DNA of 6,155 nt from a virus: IMG/VR virus record IMGVR_UViG_3300000330_000030, positions 1 through 6,155 of that record; one strand, written 5' to 3'. The notes below the pieces were generated by a model. The model saw only the letters and a program-made list of their open reading frames with translations, was not told the origin of the DNA and did not search any database. Of this stretch, positions 1 to 6,155 are shown one piece after another. A program made the translations under genes and the position numbers. Positions within the stretch are counted from its first letter, which is position 1. The number at the start of each line of letters is the position of its first letter.

Positions 1-54
1 AACATTCATATCACCAAGCAAGCGACGATATTTTTCCTGATTCAAGAGAATCTG
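1..54. repeat. Terminal direct repeat, copy 1 (identical to 6102-6155). It is the overlap of a circular genome assembly.
   Basis: I compared the two ends base by base. AACATTCATATCACCAAGCAAGCGACGATATTTTTCCTGATTCAAGAGAATCTG occurs at 1-54 and again at 6102-6155. A minus-strand reading frame stays open across the implied junction. Confidence 0.95.
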
Positions 55-207
55 AGTCATATCACATTGAATCAGATCACCGTCAGGAGTCTCATCATAC
101 ATGACCGGATCATAAACAGAAGCCTGATAGCACGGATTACCTTCCTTCAGCTCAGGAACATACGAACTCTTTTCAAAATTCTCATTTTTATACGCAAAAC
201 TTCTCAT
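1..207 (-). CDS. N-terminal part of a 147-aa protein whose frame crosses the circular junction and continues in 6101..5865. Possible internal scaffolding (VP3-like) protein.
   Basis: Hand translation of the minus strand from ATG 207..205, which lies 10 nt after the VP1 stop at 218-220. It gives MRSFAYKNENFEKSSYVPELKEGNPCYQASVYDPVMYDETPDGDLIQCDMTQILLNQEKYRRLLGDMNV..., in frame with the 5865..6146 ORF through the repeat. About 54% of third codon positions are T, the same bias as in VP1. An alternative upstream ATG at 234..232 would overlap the VP1 3' end; the in-frame stop is at 240..238. The functional label rests only on size, position next to VP2 and a DxNxNNIL-like segment, so it is weak. 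Confidence 0.7.
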   Translation of the reverse strand, partial: MRSFAYKNENFEKSSYVPELKEGNPCYQASVYDPVMYDETPDGDLIQCDMTQILLNQEKYRRLLGDMNV

Positions 208-217
208 AATCAATACA

Positions 218-1936
218 TTAATAAGGTAAACCATTTCTATCCAAATTCTGCACAGCATAAACTTGGAAATTAACATTACATAATAACTGGTCGTATGCAA
301 CAGAACAGTTCTGGCCTGAAACCTGAGGCTCAAAGATAGAGTTCAATTGCTGAGGACGAACCTTCATAGACTGATAAGACCAAGTACCAGAAGAGGTGAG
401 AATATCCCAACCATCAATAGGGGCAGACCAAGACTGGTAAGCCATGCCAGAGCGGAATGCAGCGTGAACAGTATCAATGTTAGATTTCCATTGCCAATAC
501 CGAAGGTTATAACCAAGAGAACCAGAAACGGTACGAGACGGGTTATTCTGTAAATTCAAAGCAGGGACAGGCTGCATACCTAACTGATCGAACGCAGGTT
601 GGGGGAAGTCGGTAATAGCCGTAACAGTCAACTGAGGGTTCTGACCTGTCAGATTCCAGTCAACCATAGGAACAGCATGATATACACACATAATTACCTG
701 ATGTTCGGCACCGCAGTCATAAGTCAGCGTATGGCCAGAAGCTGAACCTACACCTTTACCAGCGATTACGGCTTGAGAGTTATCAGCCTCTAAATTAGTA
801 TTCAGGACTTCGTTAATATTGATCACATTTGACCAACCTCCGATATAATGTGCATGATTGCCCATATATTCAGGAGCCTTAATACCGAATTGAGCAACCA
901 TCTGATCTGAATAGTCCTTGCTAGAGAATTGCACTACTTCTTTCCAACGCTGTAAGTATTCAGTTGCGCGGATTGAAAGAGCAGATAAATCTGAATTCAA
1001 AACAACATTACGAGGACTAGCAATACTAGAAACAGTCACATTAGAAGAACCATCGGCAACACGAAGGGGAGAAGACAAAGGAAGAGTAACAATACGATTA
1101 GAAGCAGCTCCACCCATGTCATAAGACGAAGGCAAAACAGCTACCGAACCATACTGAGAATTAGGAAGCATACCCATGAAATAGTCCTTCGGATAATTGG
1201 CATAACGGAGCTGGAGCATCTCAGGGGCAAGATTCAATTGCGATTTACCGTCCCAATAATCAACATTGTAAGCATAAGCCAGGTGCTTTTCCCATTGAGA
1301 TTCAGAGAAGAAGTCATAGTAGATCTTCTGATAAGCCAACAACGGAAGAAGATTGACAGTCTGGCTAGCACTATAAACCAAAGGATTATCAGCATCGGCA
1401 GTTTTATCTAGACCTAAATAGGCTTTGGTAATAAGATCTTTAGCGTCATTTGTGGAAGAGAGGAAAGAACCATATCCAAGCATATCCAATACCTTAGAAG
1501 CGCCATAAACATATGGCAAGCCAGCATCATCGAGGGTATCCTGAGTAACAATCGTCCGAAGACTCAATGACAACAAACTCAACGTTGTATTCGGTACAGA
1601 AGTCAACATCTCGGTGTTAGCAGTATTACTAGCAGCAGACGTCATATAATCCGTCATCTGAGTAAACGCCTGCGGAAGAGCACGAGAAATCAAGCGTAAC
1701 GGCACAGCGTAAAAGTCATAATACTCCTTAATACGGGTATATGCAGCCGTATTAACGGGAACAGTACGAGTAAACCAATCGGAAGAGATACGATACTTGT
1801 TGCCAGGAATAGCTATCTGCCAATAACAAGGAAGGATCTCTCCAACTTTTGCCGTAAATAACTTTTTGCTAGATAAGTCAAAGGAAGAGCGATGGACAGC
1901 AACTTTCGCTCGGTCTAGCGGATTAAAATCACTCAT
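218..1936 (-). CDS. VP1: Microviridae major capsid protein (VP1 / F-like)
   Basis: 572-aa ATG-initiated ORF. The N-terminus ...VHRSSFDLSSKKLFTAKVGEILPCYWQIAIPGNKYRISSDWFTRTVPVNTAAYTRIKEYYDFYAVPLRLI carries the conserved microvirus capsid signature (RSxFDLS ... GxLxP ... PG ... F/YxVPxR). Size is typical, and third-position T bias is strong in this frame. Confidence 0.95.
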   Translation of the reverse strand: MSDFNPLDRAKVAVHRSSFDLSSKKLFTAKVGEILPCYWQIAIPGNKYRISSDWFTRTVPVNTAAYTRIKEYYDFYAVPLRLISRALPQAFTQMTDYMTSAASNTANTEMLTSVPNTTLSLLSLSLRTIVTQDTLDDAGLPYVYGASKVLDMLGYGSFLSSTNDAKDLITKAYLGLDKTADADNPLVYSASQTVNLLPLLAYQKIYYDFFSESQWEKHLAYAYNVDYWDGKSQLNLAPEMLQLRYANYPKDYFMGMLPNSQYGSVAVLPSSYDMGGAASNRIVTLPLSSPLRVADGSSNVTVSSIASPRNVVLNSDLSALSIRATEYLQRWKEVVQFSSKDYSDQMVAQFGIKAPEYMGNHAHYIGGWSNVININEVLNTNLEADNSQAVIAGKGVGSASGHTLTYDCGAEHQVIMCVYHAVPMVDWNLTGQNPQLTVTAITDFPQPAFDQLGMQPVPALNLQNNPSRTVSGSLGYNLRYWQWKSNIDTVHAAFRSGMAYQSWSAPIDGWDILTSSGTWSYQSMKVRPQQLNSIFEPQVSGQNCSVAYDQLLCNVNFQVYAVQNLDRNGLPY

Positions 1937-1952
1937 AATTAATTAATTTAAA

Positions 1953-3767
1953 TTAGACCATACGGTTAAATATATCATTTGCATCATTCAATTTTTTATG
2001 CTTAATCATATTCCGACAGACGGTAGAAGCACGGAAATAAAGACATTTTTGTAAGTCGTCGAGCGACCCATTATCAAAGGCACTTCTTGTATCGGGTTTC
2101 GCAGATTTGAAGTAATTACAAGTCGCGAGAGATGGGATTCTGGGGTCATCAAACGGTACTCGTATTTGTTCTTTAATAGGACGAATAAATCCGTCTGCAT
2201 ATTCTCCGTCTTCACCGATACCAATGGTCGCCATCTCGCATCCTTCGGCTGGTACATAGAAATACCGAAACATAGGGGCAGGCAAAGTCTGTTGTATTCG
2301 CAACGAATCACACATTCGTACATAGTCCGCTTTCTTTTCATACTCTATGCCTTTTTTAATGATATAATTAATACGGGAGGTATAAATATACAAATCGTCG
2401 CCAATGCCAGGGAGATTCCAATTGCGGAGGAACTTAGAGACATAAAGGAATAGCCGATATAACTTATTAATAAAATATTCAACATCGACATCGCTAGAAC
2501 TGTTAACGAACCTAGTAAGGCACCTAGCATTATGTAGTACAATCTTATCATCATCAGTCAATATATGATTTAAAGTTATATATTTATAATAAGCACGCAC
2601 TATAGATAGAATAGAATTACTATCATAATCTACAATGCCGAAACGTGCGATTCTTTTTGGCGCTGATGCAACTGAGCAAATAACTCTATATATCGCAACA
2701 GCATCATCATAGCGAGCTCCTGAGAATCTGGGGAATAAGGAACGGATATACGATATGGGGGGAGTTGACTTGACAACGATTCCATTAAAATTATACTCTC
2801 GTCCATTAATGACCGAATCGATTTTTTGCTCAATTTGCGCATAGACATCTTCACCTTCATCAAATGTTTCACCTTTTTCAAAGAATCCGAGAGACGCTCT
2901 TGAGCGGGGTTTAAACGCACGGCATGAGCGATAAAGAGAGGGAGCAGAAGCCAAGCTGTTAACGTAACTCGCAACGTATGAAGCGCATCCACCGTTGGAA
3001 CGTTGGATATCTGAACGACCGAACTTCCAACTTTTATTATGACACTCTCGAAGGACATCGGCGATTTCCTGCGAGTTGAAGAATAGTAACAAATGGAAAT
3101 GTGGGCGGAAATGGACTGGGCCATACTCGCCAACAGCGTAAAATGATATCTTTTCATTAGTGTATTTATCTAAATGTCTACGTAAACGTTTAATATAATT
3201 CTGAACATCAACATAGTTCAGATAAGGGATAAGATTATTACCGTATCTACAGGAAAGTTCTCCATCTTTACCGTAAGGTGTAGCGGATTGCGTCTTATCA
3301 ATAAAGGAACGGATAGCATCCATAGAAAGAAACCAATTATCTTTAATCGGCTCATACTGACCTGATTCACGGTTATATGGAACTGTACCCTGTACCTGTG
3401 TAAAGTATATATGGCGCAATTGTTGTGAGTCTGTACAACAATATTTGGATATCGGAACAAACGAATGTTTTTCATAACCATAAACAACACCAGAATCGCT
3501 TAAAACATCATCATATTCAGAATAATATACCTCACAATTAAATAGAGGAATGTGTTCATTATCGTAGGTGAGCGTAACAAACCAACAATGCTTAAAGGCA
3601 CTTCCAGCGGTCTTCACACGCATGGACGCCTTTTGAGCTCGCTTGTGTATACAATAATCGCATTGACCGCAATCTATAGCGATACGCTTACCTGTATATC
3701 TGTTAGTAACGAACGAACGATGTTGACAATGGTCAGCAGCTTTAAGCAACTCTGGTGTATATTTCAT
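1953..3767 (-). CDS. VP4: Replication initiation protein (VP4 / A-like HUH rolling-circle endonuclease) with a long C-terminal extension
   Basis: 604-aa ORF. It has an N-terminal Cys cluster, CGQCDYCIHKR. RCR motif I is FVTLTY (3564-3581). The HUH motif is RPHFHLLLFF (HFHLLL at 3084-3101). The two-tyrosine motif is YVASYVNS (2955-2978), comparable to the YxxxY catalytic motif of phiX174 protein A. I verified each by back-translation. Its ATG overlaps the peptidase stop (ATGA at 3764-3767). Confidence 0.92.
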   Translation of the reverse strand: MKYTPELLKAADHCQHRSFVTNRYTGKRIAIDCGQCDYCIHKRAQKASMRVKTAGSAFKHCWFVTLTYDNEHIPLFNCEVYYSEYDDVLSDSGVVYGYEKHSFVPISKYCCTDSQQLRHIYFTQVQGTVPYNRESGQYEPIKDNWFLSMDAIRSFIDKTQSATPYGKDGELSCRYGNNLIPYLNYVDVQNYIKRLRRHLDKYTNEKISFYAVGEYGPVHFRPHFHLLLFFNSQEIADVLRECHNKSWKFGRSDIQRSNGGCASYVASYVNSLASAPSLYRSCRAFKPRSRASLGFFEKGETFDEGEDVYAQIEQKIDSVINGREYNFNGIVVKSTPPISYIRSLFPRFSGARYDDAVAIYRVICSVASAPKRIARFGIVDYDSNSILSIVRAYYKYITLNHILTDDDKIVLHNARCLTRFVNSSSDVDVEYFINKLYRLFLYVSKFLRNWNLPGIGDDLYIYTSRINYIIKKGIEYEKKADYVRMCDSLRIQQTLPAPMFRYFYVPAEGCEMATIGIGEDGEYADGFIRPIKEQIRVPFDDPRIPSLATCNYFKSAKPDTRSAFDNGSLDDLQKCLYFRASTVCRNMIKHKKLNDANDIFNRMV

Positions 3768-4060
3768 ACTCTTTTATCAATTAATTGATGACGATTTCTT
3801 GAACTAAAGGATATATGCATGAATCCATCATAAAGAATAAACTGGTCAAATGCAACATTATCCATAATATAAGTTACCAACTGGCTATAAGTTGTAGAAC
3901 CATAAGGCTTGAAGTCAATAGCTTCGCCTTTAAGATGCTGAGAATTAGGAGCTCCTCCAGCAGTTCTATTCTGAAAAACAGTCCGAAGCGCGCTCGTTAT
4001 TGTAAAATGGAAGTTAAGCTGTAGCAAATCATCCAAAAAAGACATAAGGGCAGGATTCAT
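3764..4060 (-). CDS. Zinc D-Ala-D-Ala carboxypeptidase-like peptidase (Peptidase_M15 / LAS-type cell-wall hydrolase); candidate endolysin or entry enzyme
   Basis: 98-aa ORF. SALRTVFQNRTAGGAPNSQHLKGEAIDFKP ... GFMHISF matches the M15 signature SxxR...N...GG...SxHxxGxAxD ... H. The predicted zinc ligands are H42 (3935-3937), D49 (3914-3916) and H82 (3815-3817), giving H-x6-D...H. There are ATGA overlaps at both ends (4057-4060 and 3764-3767). Confidence 0.85.
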   Translation of the reverse strand: MNPALMSFLDDLLQLNFHFTITSALRTVFQNRTAGGAPNSQHLKGEAIDFKPYGSTTYSQLVTYIMDNVAFDQFILYDGFMHISFSSRNRHQLIDKRV

Positions 4061-4143
4061 AGACCTATAGCATTAAGTATATAACCAAGAGCTGCACTAA
4101 CAGCTCCAATAATAATCTTCCAAATATTATTTTTAGTTGCCAT
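4057..4143 (-). CDS. 28-aa single-pass membrane peptide (MATKNNIWKIIIGAVSAALGYILNAIGL), translationally coupled to the peptidase; holin/spanin-like candidate
   Basis: ATG at 4143..4141, and the TGA stop overlaps the peptidase ATG (ATGA). It has a 22-residue hydrophobic stretch after a short polar N-terminus. 18 of 28 third codon positions are T (64%), matching the coding bias of this genome. This indicates the frame is the translated one in this segment. Confidence 0.55.
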   Translation of the reverse strand: MATKNNIWKIIIGAVSAALGYILNAIGL

Positions 4144-4330
4144 TTTGAGTTGTTTTAACAGGTTCGACGAATTGATTCTCTTCTTTAATAGAATCCACAA
4201 TAACAACAAGACCCAACGGAGAAATTCGCTCAGAATAATTTCCAAGGCCATCCAAAGAATTGACAATATAAGGCGCAATAACATCACGACCTGAATTTTT
4301 CTCCTTAATTGAAATAATAAATTTTTGCAT
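4133..4330 (-). CDS. Hypothetical 65-aa protein, first gene after the non-coding region
   Basis: ATG-initiated ORF MQKFIISIKEKNSGRDVIAPYIVNSLDGLGNYSERISPLGLVVIVDSIKEENQFVEPVKTTQNGN. 35 of 65 third positions are T (54%). The overlapping 93-aa frame scores about 19% T over the same stretch, so this is the primary coding frame. I recognise no motif. Confidence 0.7.
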   Translation of the reverse strand: MQKFIISIKEKNSGRDVIAPYIVNSLDGLGNYSERISPLGLVVIVDSIKEENQFVEPVKTTQNGN

Positions 4331-4477
4331 AATTCCAAATTTTAAACGTTAATAATACTGAGTTAGCTTCTACAGGGGACAAAGAAAAACATTATTTTTT
4401 ATATATGCAAAATTCTACGGATATTTTTTTAGGCATGGCCTTGTGTGAGTTCAACGTTTATAGACAAGGAAAGAGAG

Positions 4478-4500
4478 AAACTGAGAGGGTAACTCAGTTT
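4478..4500. other. Perfect 8-bp stem with 7-nt loop hairpin (AAACTGAG-AGGGTAA-CTCAGTTT)
   Basis: Seen directly: 4478-4485 is the exact reverse complement of 4493-4500. It is nested inside a 7-bp outer pairing, AGTTCAA (4448-4454) with TTGAACT (4511-4517). It is immediately followed by the mini-palindrome TGCGTTCGCA (4501-4510). Confidence 0.7.
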
Positions 4501-4521
4501 TGCGTTCGCATTGAACTAGGG

Positions 4522-4639
4522 GCTTCGCATGATTAAAAGTGGATGTAAACAAAGTGTATAGGCACGACAAGCCAATTAGTCTTGTCTTTGCGCACCGACG
4601 TGCTAAAGTACCGCTTCGCTTTAAGGTAGGTCGCTTCGC
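4522..4639 (-). repeat. Three copies of the heptamer GCGAAGC on the coding/packaged-sense strand (plus-strand GCTTCGC at 4522-4528, 4613-4619, 4633-4639)
   Basis: Exact matches read from the sequence. The last two sit in a repeated 9-mer, CGCTTCGCT (4612-4620 and 4632-4640), 20 nt apart. d(GCGAAGC) is known as an unusually stable DNA mini-hairpin. Confidence 0.85.
4541..4576. repeat. Bipartite direct repeat, copy 1 (GGATGTAAACAA - 10 nt - CACGACAAGCCAAT)
   Basis: The 12-mer at 4541-4552 is identical to 4716-4727. The second module at 4563-4576 matches 4743-4757 apart from one extra G in copy 2, and they share the exact 9-mer CAAGCCAAT. GACAAG (4566-4571) also pairs with CTTGTC (4581-4586) to form a 6-bp hairpin. 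Confidence 0.8.
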
Positions 4640-4715
4640 TCCATTTTTCGACCAGGCCCTACGCGGGCAGCGGGTGTATATCGCTCAAGCGCCGCGATGG
4701 GCTTTTAGTCCTGAA

Positions 4716-4757
4716 GGATGTAAACAAGAAAGGCCTACTCATCACGAGCAAGCCAAT
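4716..4757. repeat. Bipartite direct repeat, copy 2 (GGATGTAAACAA - 15 nt - CACGAGCAAGCCAAT)
   Basis: See copy 1. The 12-mers are exactly 175 nt apart, and together the two copies bracket the G+C-rich core. Confidence 0.8.
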
Positions 4758-4806
4758 CAAGAATAAACTAATAGACACAGAAGATAAAAAAACTACTTAC
4801 TATATA

Positions 4807-5865
4807 CTATTCAAATGTACCAATAAAATTGCCAGCACCAGAGGCTATAGAACTAAGGCCACGAGAAGCAGATTCCCAATAATGGGTACGACCTTTTTTC
4901 CGAGACAAGTCTGCACCATATTCATATAGCCTTTGCTTAGCCTTATCGGTATCATACTGAATATGCTTACGTAATTTAACATTAGCAGAATCATAAGATG
5001 CATCACGATACTGCAACTGATAAGCAGCATTCGAAGCCTTAATCAAAGATTCAGCAGTGCTTGAAGCAATATCATTAGATATCTTTTGACCAGAAGCCTG
5101 AGCAGCCGTTAATATAGCACGTTGGAGTTCAGTCTGAATCTGCTTTTCCGTAAGAGCACCATTTAACTGAAGATTAGCCAAAGTCTGACCTTTAATAAAT
5201 AAGTCGGCTTGTTGTTGTTCATCAAGATAACGGTTTAAAATACGTTGAGCATCAGAGTTCAAAAGAATCTGAGTTTCTTGAGCAGCAGACAATCGTTCAG
5301 CGAACTGAAGATTCTTTAATTCCTGAGCCTCTGTAGATTGGTCTAAGGAGGCAGAGATACGACCAGTTTCCTTATTCCAATAGCCAGACTGACCAACAGC
5401 CAGATTTTTCCAATTAGTCAAACCTTTATAATAATCAGCAATTTGAGGAGTAATAGAATCAATATAATTAGATTCTGACTGAGCCTTTTTCGCTTGGGCA
5501 AGAGAAGCTAAAGAATTAAAGACATTGGAAAAATTGGGCTTAAAAGCCTGCATAGACGGAACAGGAGCGGCAGTAGCAGCAGCACCACCAGAGGCAGGAG
5601 CTTTAGAACCAGCCATAGCGGCAGAACCTTGAATAAACGGATTCAAACCACGAGCAATCATAGCATTCGGAGAATTGTAAGCATTATTCATACCCCACAT
5701 TCTCTCTTGCCAATCACGCTGAAGCTGAGATTGCTCGGCATTGAACGCGTTTTGTTCTCGCATCACACGGAGGTTAACCTTATTCTGATGATTTTGGTTA
5801 ACCATGCCTACCACATTGTCGGTAAGATTACCGACAGTGGAAGCAATCGCATCGAAGAGACCCAT
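4807..5865 (-). CDS. VP2: Minor capsid / DNA pilot protein (VP2, H-like)
   Basis: 352-aa ORF whose ATG overlaps the upstream stop (TAATG at 5863-5867). The N-terminal LQRDWQERMWGMNNAYNSPNAMIARGLNPF resembles the ...ERM..N.A.....M...GLNP signature I associate with gokusho/alpavirus VP2. It is followed by an Ala/Gly/Pro linker (GGAAATAAPVP) and a long Q/L/A-rich helical-looking region, as in H-type pilot proteins. Size and synteny fit. Confidence 0.75.
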   Translation of the reverse strand: MGLFDAIASTVGNLTDNVVGMVNQNHQNKVNLRVMREQNAFNAEQSQLQRDWQERMWGMNNAYNSPNAMIARGLNPFIQGSAAMAGSKAPASGGAAATAAPVPSMQAFKPNFSNVFNSLASLAQAKKAQSESNYIDSITPQIADYYKGLTNWKNLAVGQSGYWNKETGRISASLDQSTEAQELKNLQFAERLSAAQETQILLNSDAQRILNRYLDEQQQADLFIKGQTLANLQLNGALTEKQIQTELQRAILTAAQASGQKISNDIASSTAESLIKASNAAYQLQYRDASYDSANVKLRKHIQYDTDKAKQRLYEYGADLSRKKGRTHYWESASRGLSSIASGAGNFIGTFE

Positions 5866-6155
5866 TAAACGTTAGGTGCAGGGGCGGACGCATCAGGAGC
5901 GGGCGCTGCACTTTGCTCTGCCAACACAGACTTAGCGAACTCAGTCAATTCCGAATGTTGAGAAGCCAATTCAGATAATACAGCCTGACGTTCAGACATT
6001 GTTTGACAATGACGGGAAATAACAGCATTAAAACGCTCTTCATCCGTCATACCATCCATCACAGTAGACTGCGTAGGATGCATCTGAGCCAATATATTAT
6101 TAACATTCATATCACCAAGCAAGCGACGATATTTTTCCTGATTCAAGAGAATCTG
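5865..6155 (-). CDS. C-terminal part of the junction-spanning 147-aa protein (same gene as 1..207). The ORF-track TTG start at 6146 is an edge artefact.
   Basis: The frame is open to the window edge (…QILLNQEKYRRLL…). 6102-6155 duplicates 1-54, so the ORF continues upstream to ATG 207..205. The C-terminus is helical-looking and ends in an Ala/Pro tail (AAPAPDASAPAPNV). The stop overlaps the VP2 ATG. Confidence 0.8.
   Translation of the reverse strand, partial: QILLNQEKYRRLLGDMNVNNILAQMHPTQSTVMDGMTDEERFNAVISRHCQTMSERQAVLSELASQHSELTEFAKSVLAEQSAAPAPDASAPAPNV
6102..6155. repeat. Terminal direct repeat, copy 2 (identical to 1-54)
   Basis: Exact 54/54 identity with the window start. Confidence 0.95.

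Follow-up and report, generated by a model that had tools for sequence, protein, structure and literature searches.

Several sites at which priming or transcription is initiated on single-stranded DNA (ssDNA) carry mini-hairpins, very small DNA hairpins for which Hirao gave the sequence forms d(GCGNAGC) and d(GCGNNAGC). The origins of St-1 and alpha3 carry GCGTTAGC, ssiA of RSF1010, which is used by the RepB' primase, carries CCGAAGG, the hairpin promoters of N4 carry GCGGAGC and GAA, and tandem mini-hairpins bind single-stranded DNA-binding protein (SSB) poorly (Hirao review, PMC13037366). In phiX174, the primosome recognizes a hairpin "ahead of gene G" in the F-G region (PMC9865509). Here, we describe a structured noncoding element of about 285 nucleotides (nt), located at 4441-4724 of a 6,155-nt viral DNA (IMG/VR record IMGVR_UViG_3300000330_000030, positions 1 to 6,155; the whole stretch is referred to as the window). 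Coordinates are those of the window unless another genome is named, and all features of the element are on the minus strand. An initial annotation of this DNA had noticed that three copies of GCGAAGC cluster on one strand. We found that these heptamers are, very probably, conserved hairpin modules of a folded single-strand element. On balance, we propose that the element may be a single-strand initiation (ssi) signal, that is, the origin of complementary (minus)-strand synthesis.

The element appears to resemble the ssi sites of G4 and phiX174 and the single-strand origins (sso) of plasmids in function, yet by sequence it belongs to none of these groups. In common with complementary-strand origins, it lies in noncoding DNA of the viral strand and has conserved hairpins. 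The primase-dependent origins of G4, St-1, and alpha3, in the F-G region, are likewise noncoding viral-strand multi-hairpin regions in which one hairpin has the mini-hairpin motif. We found that the only GCGAAAGC of G4 (G4 positions 3977-3984) is inside the annotated "RNA primer of replication" (3970-3997), beside the annotated complementary-strand origin. The likeness extends to the GCGTTAGC of St-1 and alpha3, as C-GTTA-G is also found in some relatives of the window. However, the F-G intergenic region of G4 has 136 nt (3884-4019), compared with ∼285 nt here, and we detected no sequence similarity between the two. The G4 origin also has one mini-hairpin, whereas the present element has four or five, as well as a long-range helix that encloses two hairpins. 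The host here is probably not an enterobacterium, and priming is proposed from the sequence.

At the phiX174 primosome assembly site (the n'/PriA hairpin), GCGAAGC is likewise in an intergenic region. We found that the only viral-strand copy in phiX174 (2358-2364) is within the F-G intergenic region, in line with the initial annotation, which had placed the motif at the phiX174 origin. The surrounding phiX174 sequence, AAGCGAAGCG..GGTA (AAGCGAAGCGCGGTA, 2356-2371), resembles AAGCGAAGCGGTA of the window (4610-4622), a match of ∼13 nt that is too short to indicate homology. The phiX174 site is a single hairpin region recognized by PriA, unlike the multi-helix element. At RSF1010 ssiA and ssiB and at the N4 virion RNA polymerase promoters, a primase or polymerase initiates on ssDNA hairpins whose caps are CCGAAGG, GCGGAGC, or GAA triloops, and variants of the CCGAAGG and GCGGAGC types are also found here, at the mini-hairpin positions that we call H9 and H3. 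All of the mini-hairpin variants in the Hirao review occur at homologous positions in the element. In contrast to the element, the RSF1010 and N4 sites are single 40-nt hairpins served by element-encoded enzymes; a Pfam scan of eight open reading frames (ORFs) of the window found no primase or RNA polymerase gene. The plasmid sso (ssoA, ssoT, ssoU, and ssoW) are similar in being orientation-specific, structured noncoding regions of a few hundred nucleotides, and they work only as ssDNA with host enzymes. They differ in that the CS-6 consensus of ssoA, TAGCG[T/A], is present in only 1 of 87 copies of the element, and our plasmid search found no homologue of the element. The intergenic hairpins of the reekeekee- and roodoodoo-microviruses are also conserved, show compensatory changes, and were proposed to be negative-strand origins; they are one or two simple hairpins of proposed function, with no mini-hairpin motif or multi-helix domain described (PMC9865509).

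The window looks like a complete microvirus genome, and the minus strand carries all of its recognizable genes. We counted exactly four copies of GCGAAGC in the window, at 3921-3927, 4522-4528, 4613-4619, and 4633-4639, each of them on the minus strand. This strand is the mRNA sense, because all of the Pfam-supported genes are carried on it. Microviridae package the mRNA-sense strand, and by this convention all of the copies, including the three exact matches to the Hirao sequence within the element, are on a strand that exists as ssDNA. The initial annotation had reported the three clustered copies, a 9-mer repeat of CGCTTCGCT at 4612-4620 and 4632-4640 with a spacing of 20 nt, the packaged orientation, and the one further copy in the peptidase gene, and each of these statements held. 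The copy at 3921-3927 is explained by coding, because it forms the codons GGC GAA GCT for G45-E46-A47 in the peptidase zinc-binding motif SQHLKGEAID. Dinucleotide shuffles of the whole window had a mean of 0.67 GCGAAGC (both strands), and 4 copies were reached in 1 of 200. For the sense strand of the intergenic region (4339-4806), the shuffle mean was 0.034 and the maximum was 2; the observed number of 3 was reached in 0 of 5,000 dinucleotide shuffles, in agreement with the earlier opinion that the cluster is unlikely to have arisen by chance.

Among relatives, the 468 nt that separate the pilot gene from the small gene are 74 to 84% identical, compared with 70 to 80% genome-wide. Using a 17-nt probe from this gap, we retrieved 113 viral contigs, and all but four chance matches were ∼6-kb microvirus genomes with the element. 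With a profile search, we located it in 48 of another 49 contigs (capsids 63 to 89% identical), always on the gene-sense strand; altogether, more than 100 related microvirus genomes are known to carry the element. The clade has a sharp boundary, as capsid identity is at least 68% inside and at most 37.5% outside. The initial annotation had asked whether the heptamer shows strand bias and intergenic enrichment in related genomes, and both were clear. Among 107 unique genomes, we counted 164 sense copies of GCGAAGC within the element (5.2 per kb) and 0 antisense copies; the sense-strand density outside the element was 0.05 per kb.

We found no coding potential in the element: stop-free runs are 30 to 99 amino acids (aa) long, and the lengths show no mod-3 pattern. 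GenBank records leave the element unannotated or overlay it with inconsistent "hypothetical protein" calls. Coding sequences (CDSs) with this label run into or across the element in relatives L005 (2520-2846), L001 (2238-2486), L002 (2242-2538), and L011 (2211-2459). The CDSs annotated across the element are probably spurious because of frame-breaking indels and covariation. The Rfam 15 covariance models had no match in the window at an E value of ≤1, and their sole match in five related genomes was a chance small nucleolar RNA (snoRNA; E = 0.53). A scan for tRNA and transfer-messenger RNA (tmRNA) found none, and a full-text literature search found no description of the element. At least 120 genome matches were listed in a search for prophage or host homologues, and all of them were chance. 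Two longer public contigs, L295 and L296 (9.6 and 11.1 kb), are head-to-tail concatemers of the circular genome and not prophages.

To examine the fold, we aligned 87 nonredundant copies of the element that are <93% identical to each other. The curated structure has 50 pairs in 11 helices, and 97.5% of its cells are canonical, compared with 24 to 45% when the partners are slid by 1 to 3 columns. Both sides have changed at 21 of the 50 pairs. The covariation score was 0.173, compared with ≤0.055 for the slid versions, and was reached in 0 of 500 shuffles. G·T cells outnumber A·C cells by 139 to 48 overall and by 105 to 3 when two poorly aligned helices are excluded. Because G·T so far exceeds A·C, the fold is on the sense (minus) strand. 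When the whole intergenic region (468 nt) was folded as either DNA or RNA, for both strands, the z-scores were uninformative, at about −1.1 to −1.3. Nearest-neighbor folding leaves the 2-bp mini-hairpins unpredicted, and the model has no term for their stability. Unconstrained DNA folding recovered the helices H8 and H10 in 17 of 18 sequences.

An all-against-all covariation listing was too noisy for direct use, and several candidate pairings were rejected. RNAalifold paired 4633-4639 with 4522-4528 (GC/GC flanking tandem G·A); this pairing shows no covariation, and an ACGAAGT variant at the second site favors a local hairpin. RNAalifold also paired GCCC (columns 36 to 39) with a GGGC, and we replaced this pairing with the local hairpin GCCC-GCGTA-GGGC, which covaries perfectly (CG 83, TA 4). 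An inverted repeat of 4354-4371 and 4484-4501, which involves an arm of H10 and the origin-like motif described below, is not a conserved pairing, because only 3 of 121 genomes have it, all with the H10 arm sequence of the window.

In the alignment, what is conserved is not the exact heptamer but a C-GNA-G mini-hairpin, which occupies four fixed positions. The initial annotation had stated that its interpretation would be refuted by a lack of strand bias or of positional conservation of the heptamer in related genomes, and neither was the case. The copy at 4522-4528 (H7), which opens the 3' domain of the element, is the most conserved exact copy: the relatives read GCGAAGC in 82 of the 87, GCGGAGC in 4, and ACGAAGT, a compensatory change of the outer pair, in 1. 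The copy at 4633-4639 (H3), in the 5' domain, has an invariant stem, and its loop is mostly GGA, so that GCGGAGC is found in 75 of the relatives and GCGAAGC in 12. The copy at 4613-4619 is specific to the lineage of the window, where it replaces a 6-bp hairpin, H4 (GRAGCG-NNN-CGCTYC). At this site, AAAGCGAAGCGG is found in 3 of the 87 relatives, GCGTAGC in 1, and GGAC-GTTA-GTCC in 3, and the remaining relatives have the 6-bp hairpin, which covaries (GC 50, AT 32). In the aligned sequences, an ordinary 6-bp hairpin is therefore seen to swap with GCGAAGC, GCGTAGC, or GGAC-GTTA-GTCC, and this exchange directly supports a role of the heptamer as a hairpin module of the structure.

The fourth position, H9, corresponds to GCGAACGC in the window, the reverse complement of 4502-4509. 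The initial annotation had listed GCGAACGC as a related sequence next to the first copy. It does adjoin that copy, but it is better described as a homologue of a mini-hairpin, the one with the clearest stem covariation. In relatives, H9 reads T-[G/C/A]C-GAA-G[C/G/T]-A, and its outer pair is GC in 52, CG in 27, and AT in 7. The inner C-G closing pair is invariant (87/87), and the loops include GAA, GGA, GTA, GAAA, GAAC, and others. Across homologous mini-hairpin sites, the relatives show GCGGAGC, GCGTAGC, and GCGAAAGC. We thus found the features of a mini-hairpin, namely, a C-G closing pair, loops with G and A at their ends, and an outer pair that is exchangeable (at H9 and, as a single AT, at H7).

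The 3' domain (∼4444-4545) is the universal core of the element and consists, in order, of H7, the 5' arm of H8, H9, H10, a pyrimidine-rich tract, and the 3' arm of H8. H8 is a long-range helix of 4510-4517 with 4448-4455 (span, 4448-4517) that encloses H9, H10, and the single-stranded tract; it shows compensatory changes at 3 of its 8 pairs, and one T·G is invariant. H10, AAAACTGAG-TTACCCT-CTCAGTTT (4478-4500), has changed on both sides at 7 of 8 pairs. The tract (4456-4477, …CTTGTCTATAAAC) lies in the loop of H8, and its CTTGTC[C/T]ATAAACG is nearly invariant. It is a candidate template for the primer start. Four relatives (L278, L281, L283, and L287) retain only the 3' domain, with H7, H8, H9, H10, and the single-stranded tract.

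The 5' domain (∼4546-4724) has further helices. H1 (4680-4698) has a pair that is GC in 73, AT in 8, and CG in 4 copies, and H2 (4656-4668) is the local GCCC-GCGTA-GGGC hairpin given above. H5 (4592-4603) is GCAC-GTCG-GTGC in the window; its pair 145-152 is AT in 68 and GC in 19, and its loops are C-GGA-G in 23 and C-GNAG-G in 44 (67/87 together). H6/H6a occupies 4562-4591, with pair 165-181 of H6 being GC in 42, GT in 24, and AT in 18. Between H6 and H7 (∼4530-4561; columns 199 to 264 of alignment A2) is an insertion hotspot with 0 to ∼150 extra nt. About one-fifth of the relatives have an extra hairpin, CCCTAGATCTATTAGTAATGGATCTAGG, at this hotspot, and L014 and L287 have a ∼150-nt insert. 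A segment at 4716-4757 that includes a terminator-like hairpin (ATTGGCTTGCTCGTG…TTGTTTACATCC) shares both ends with 4541-4576 inside the element (ATTGGCTTGTCGTG…TTGTTTACATCC), as direct repeats D1/D3. These repeats look like a partial duplication of the element in the lineage of the window.

A protein database search with the capsid gave only close relatives and reached no outgroups. In outgroups with the same gene order, whose capsids are only 31 to 37% identical, we found the same 3' architecture built from different helix sequences. The H7 equivalent is GGCGAAGCC or GACGAAGTC, and the H9 equivalent is CCCGAAGGG or CCCGTAGGG. The arms of H8 (TGAGTTTG/CAAACTCA, CACTTTTG/CAAAAGTG, GTCATTTT/AAAATGAC, or TCACTTAT/ATAAGTGA) are wholly different in sequence and still pair. 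The outgroups carry a new H10 hairpin, and the tract is kept as CTCTTGTC…TATA..G (also given as CTCTTGTCTTATATA.G).

We then took a census of N-C-GNA-G-N' and N-C-GNNA-G-N' motifs with a complementary outer pair. The noncoding DNA of eight GenBank outgroup genomes has 30 motifs on the sense strand (6.6 per kb) and 4 on the antisense strand, compared with 45 (1.0 per kb) on the coding sense strand; 29 were observed where dinucleotide shuffles gave 4.2 ± 2.0. A wider census covered 59 nonredundant genomes from four further clades. Here, the densities were 4.5 (sense) and 0.7 (antisense) per kb in noncoding DNA and 0.9 (sense) and 1.3 (antisense) per kb in coding DNA, and sense motifs outnumbered antisense motifs in the noncoding DNA of 51 of the 59 genomes. 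The 160 motifs found on the noncoding sense strand represent a ∼5-fold enrichment over the shuffles (31.1 ± 5.1). Among triloops, C-GNA-G was found 115 times, compared with 15 for the flipped closing pair (G-GNA-C) and 12 for the reversed loop (C-ANG-G). Among tetraloops, there were 28 C-GNYA-G, with GTTA leading, 17 C-GNRA-G, and 1 C-UNCG-G. Loop usage follows the rules for DNA mini-hairpins (GNA and GNNA) and not those for RNA (UNCG and GNRA).

We consider it likely that the element acts as DNA. DNA is favored over RNA because the loop census follows DNA rules, and stems of 2 to 3 bp favor DNA because loop-specific stability is large in DNA and small in RNA: r(GCGAAAGC) has a melting temperature (Tm) of 39°C, compared with >76°C for the DNA forms (PMC13037366). 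According to our model, the ssDNA would be coated by host SSB after entry. The C-GNA-G mini-hairpins, which are very stable as DNA and bind SSB poorly, would hold the 3' domain folded, and the folded domain would expose the pyrimidine-rich tract in the H8 loop. A host priming enzyme could then start an RNA primer on the exposed tract, and extension by DNA polymerase would give the double-stranded replicative form. Candidates for this putative enzyme are primase (as in G4), the primosome (as in phiX174), and RNA polymerase (as in M13 and at ssoA). The initial annotation had suggested that the cluster points to a function of folded ssDNA, as a landmark for priming, Rep, or packaging. Support for this suggestion comes from the sense-strand covariation, the DNA loop rules, the flanking sequences, and the precedents of phiX174 and G4, with the choice of DNA over RNA and the precise role being what we infer.

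The transcription context also favors DNA over RNA, because the element in the window lies in a predicted nontranscribed gap. A terminator-like hairpin with a T-rich tail (4732-4754), identified by a pattern match, directly follows the VP2 (pilot protein) gene and directly precedes the element. The Bacteroidetes promoter consensus is TTTG … TAnnTTTG, and about 30 nt after the element is a match to it, TTTG-N20-TTTCTTTG (4380-4411), the sole match on either strand of the whole window. Flanked by this hairpin and this promoter match, the element is in the single predicted gap of this kind. In relatives, the promoter match lies 30 to 50 nt after the element in 102 of 108 genomes; other matches are upstream of the element in 3, inside it in 0, and antisense in 3. 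An equivalent hairpin plus T-run is located ahead of the element in L010 and L016 and immediately ahead of the 3' domain in L278, L281, and L283, and that of L283 was scored as terminator-like. The promoter motif suggests that the host is a member of Bacteroidota and that the genome is transcribed as a single unit of full length. We also observed that GTAGAA flanks the promoter, at 4413-4418 (CCGTAGAAT) and 4368-4373 (CTGTAGAAG) on the minus strand. Both copies recur in relatives, the TAGA of the second is invariant in 13 aligned relatives, and the pair could be an operator or a Rep-binding repeat.

Several observations weigh against a DNA priming signal. The packaged DNA and the mRNA have the same sense, and covariation by itself is therefore unable to tell ssDNA and RNA apart. 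The frequent G·T pairs (24/87 at one position) and the invariant T·G would be expected of RNA no less than of DNA. Both the promoter and the terminator were assigned by pattern matching only, and the Bacteroidota host is proposed from the promoter motif only. In most relatives, 0 to 20 nt separate the VP2 stop codon from the start of the element, and this interval has no terminator; in relatives the H4 hairpin followed by GGTATTTTAG itself scores as terminator-like. The 5' domain, which has two of the three heptamers of the window, is therefore probably transcribed in most relatives as a 3' untranslated region (UTR) and may have a second or different role there; only the 3' domain is consistently between terminator-like and promoter-like sites. 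Apart from the rarity of CS-6 noted above, an nhmmer search with the element profile found no match in the phiX174 and G4 genomes at an E value of ≤10.

Some of these observations are what would be expected if the element worked as RNA, with the GCGAAGC copies as RNA triloops in a 3' UTR or terminator of the late (capsid-pilot) transcript, in a processing or stability element, or in a small noncoding RNA. Such a role would fit the fold on the mRNA-sense strand, the position of the element 0 to 20 nt after the VP2 stop in most relatives, the scoring of H4 plus GGTATTTTAG as an intrinsic terminator, and the common G·T (G·U) pairs, one of them invariant. We nevertheless regard an RNA function as unlikely. 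Terminator-like hairpins precede the universal 3' domain and the promoter follows it, and promoter matches other than the one after the element are as rare as given above (upstream in 3 of 108 genomes, inside in 0, antisense in 3). Stems of 2 to 3 bp with GNA triloops are weak as RNA, the 115 cGNAg and 28 cGNYAg loops compared with 17 cGNRAg and 1 cUNCGg follow DNA rules, and no Rfam family matched.

The same evidence for a fold of the packaged strand would also fit a folded-ssDNA signal for another step, such as Rep recognition or viral-strand termination, a link between replication and packaging, or contacts with the inside of the capsid. The pentamer GAGCG occurs four times in the 5'-domain consensus, as binding repeats might. 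The element is also ∼80 nt upstream of TAACTCAGTATTATTAAC (4348-4365, minus strand), an AT-rich sequence between the promoter and the small gene that differs from the phiX174 viral-strand origin, CAACTTGATATTAATAAC, by 3 mismatches. All of 13 aligned relatives share its core, TTATTAA[C/T], some of them reading ACAACTATTATTAAC, and TAACTCAGTATTATTAAC may be a Rep nick site. On its own, this match is weak, as 31 of 200 shuffles have one. Microvirus Rep origins are short (∼30 nt), we know of no sequence-specific packaging signals in Microviridae, and the mini-hairpin precedents are all sites of priming or transcription initiation (G4, St-1, alpha3, phiX174, RSF1010 ssiA, and N4). A role in another step is thus, in our estimation, rather improbable.

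We also considered that the folded strand might present a dif-like site to host XerC/XerD for integration like that of CTX-phi. The element contains GGTGCGCA, which we take to match the start of the XerC arm of Escherichia coli dif. Bacteroidetes microvirus proviruses are flanked by dif-like sites, some with a second CTX-like site (PMC3091885), and enterobacterial gokushoviruses have a dif motif in the noncoding region after VP2 (PMC7062461). However, no sequence in the window matched the core ATAATRTAYATTATGT of the 28-bp site, even when 3 mismatches were allowed, and several relatives have a deletion of the segment containing TGTATACAT. Among the at least 120 genome matches listed, all of which were chance, we found no integrated copy, and the longer contigs are concatemers. 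A 28-bp site would, moreover, leave the 285 conserved nt unexplained, and we consider a dif-like function very improbable. A chance or compositional origin of the cluster in a G+C-rich intergenic region (52% G+C at 4501-4700, compared with ∼40% elsewhere) has next to no probability and is refuted by the shuffles, by the strand bias with zero antisense copies in the element across 107 genomes, and by the conserved positions and covarying stems.

The genes around the element, all on the minus strand, are those of a microvirus. The capsid (F, 218-1936), Rep (1953-3767), and M15 peptidase (3764-4060) genes are supported by Pfam, and the pilot protein (VP2, 4807-5865) and small genes were assigned from annotated relatives. 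The small gene is at 4057-4338 in the ORF list, where it begins at TTG 4338. All of the relatives use the ATG equivalent to 4330, which is the real start and gives a 65-aa product (MQKFIISIKEK…).

To our knowledge, no origin has been mapped for the abundant gut microviruses, and the route from ssDNA to duplex has not been described outside the phiX174/G4 group. A proposal that is broader and more tentative than that of a complementary-strand origin, and which we put at somewhat short of even, is that C-GNA-G clusters could be a general signature of complementary-strand origins across several clades of gut and oral microviruses and that the 3' domain could represent an undescribed class of ssi for Bacteroidota-type priming machinery. 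The element offers a defined target of ∼100 nt that can be mutated and that persists across lineages with capsids that are ∼30 to 37% identical. What appears to be new is an ssDNA element that combines several mini-hairpins with several helices and is confined to animal-associated (gut and oral) microviruses, together with a motif rule that seems to be general across clades. The DNA mini-hairpin is extended from isolated cases (G4, phiX174, RSF1010, and N4) to a recurring, covarying feature. The C-GNA-G rule for the noncoding sense strand could help to locate candidate origins in the genomes of uncultured ssDNA phages and, combined with gene orientation, could indicate which strand is packaged.

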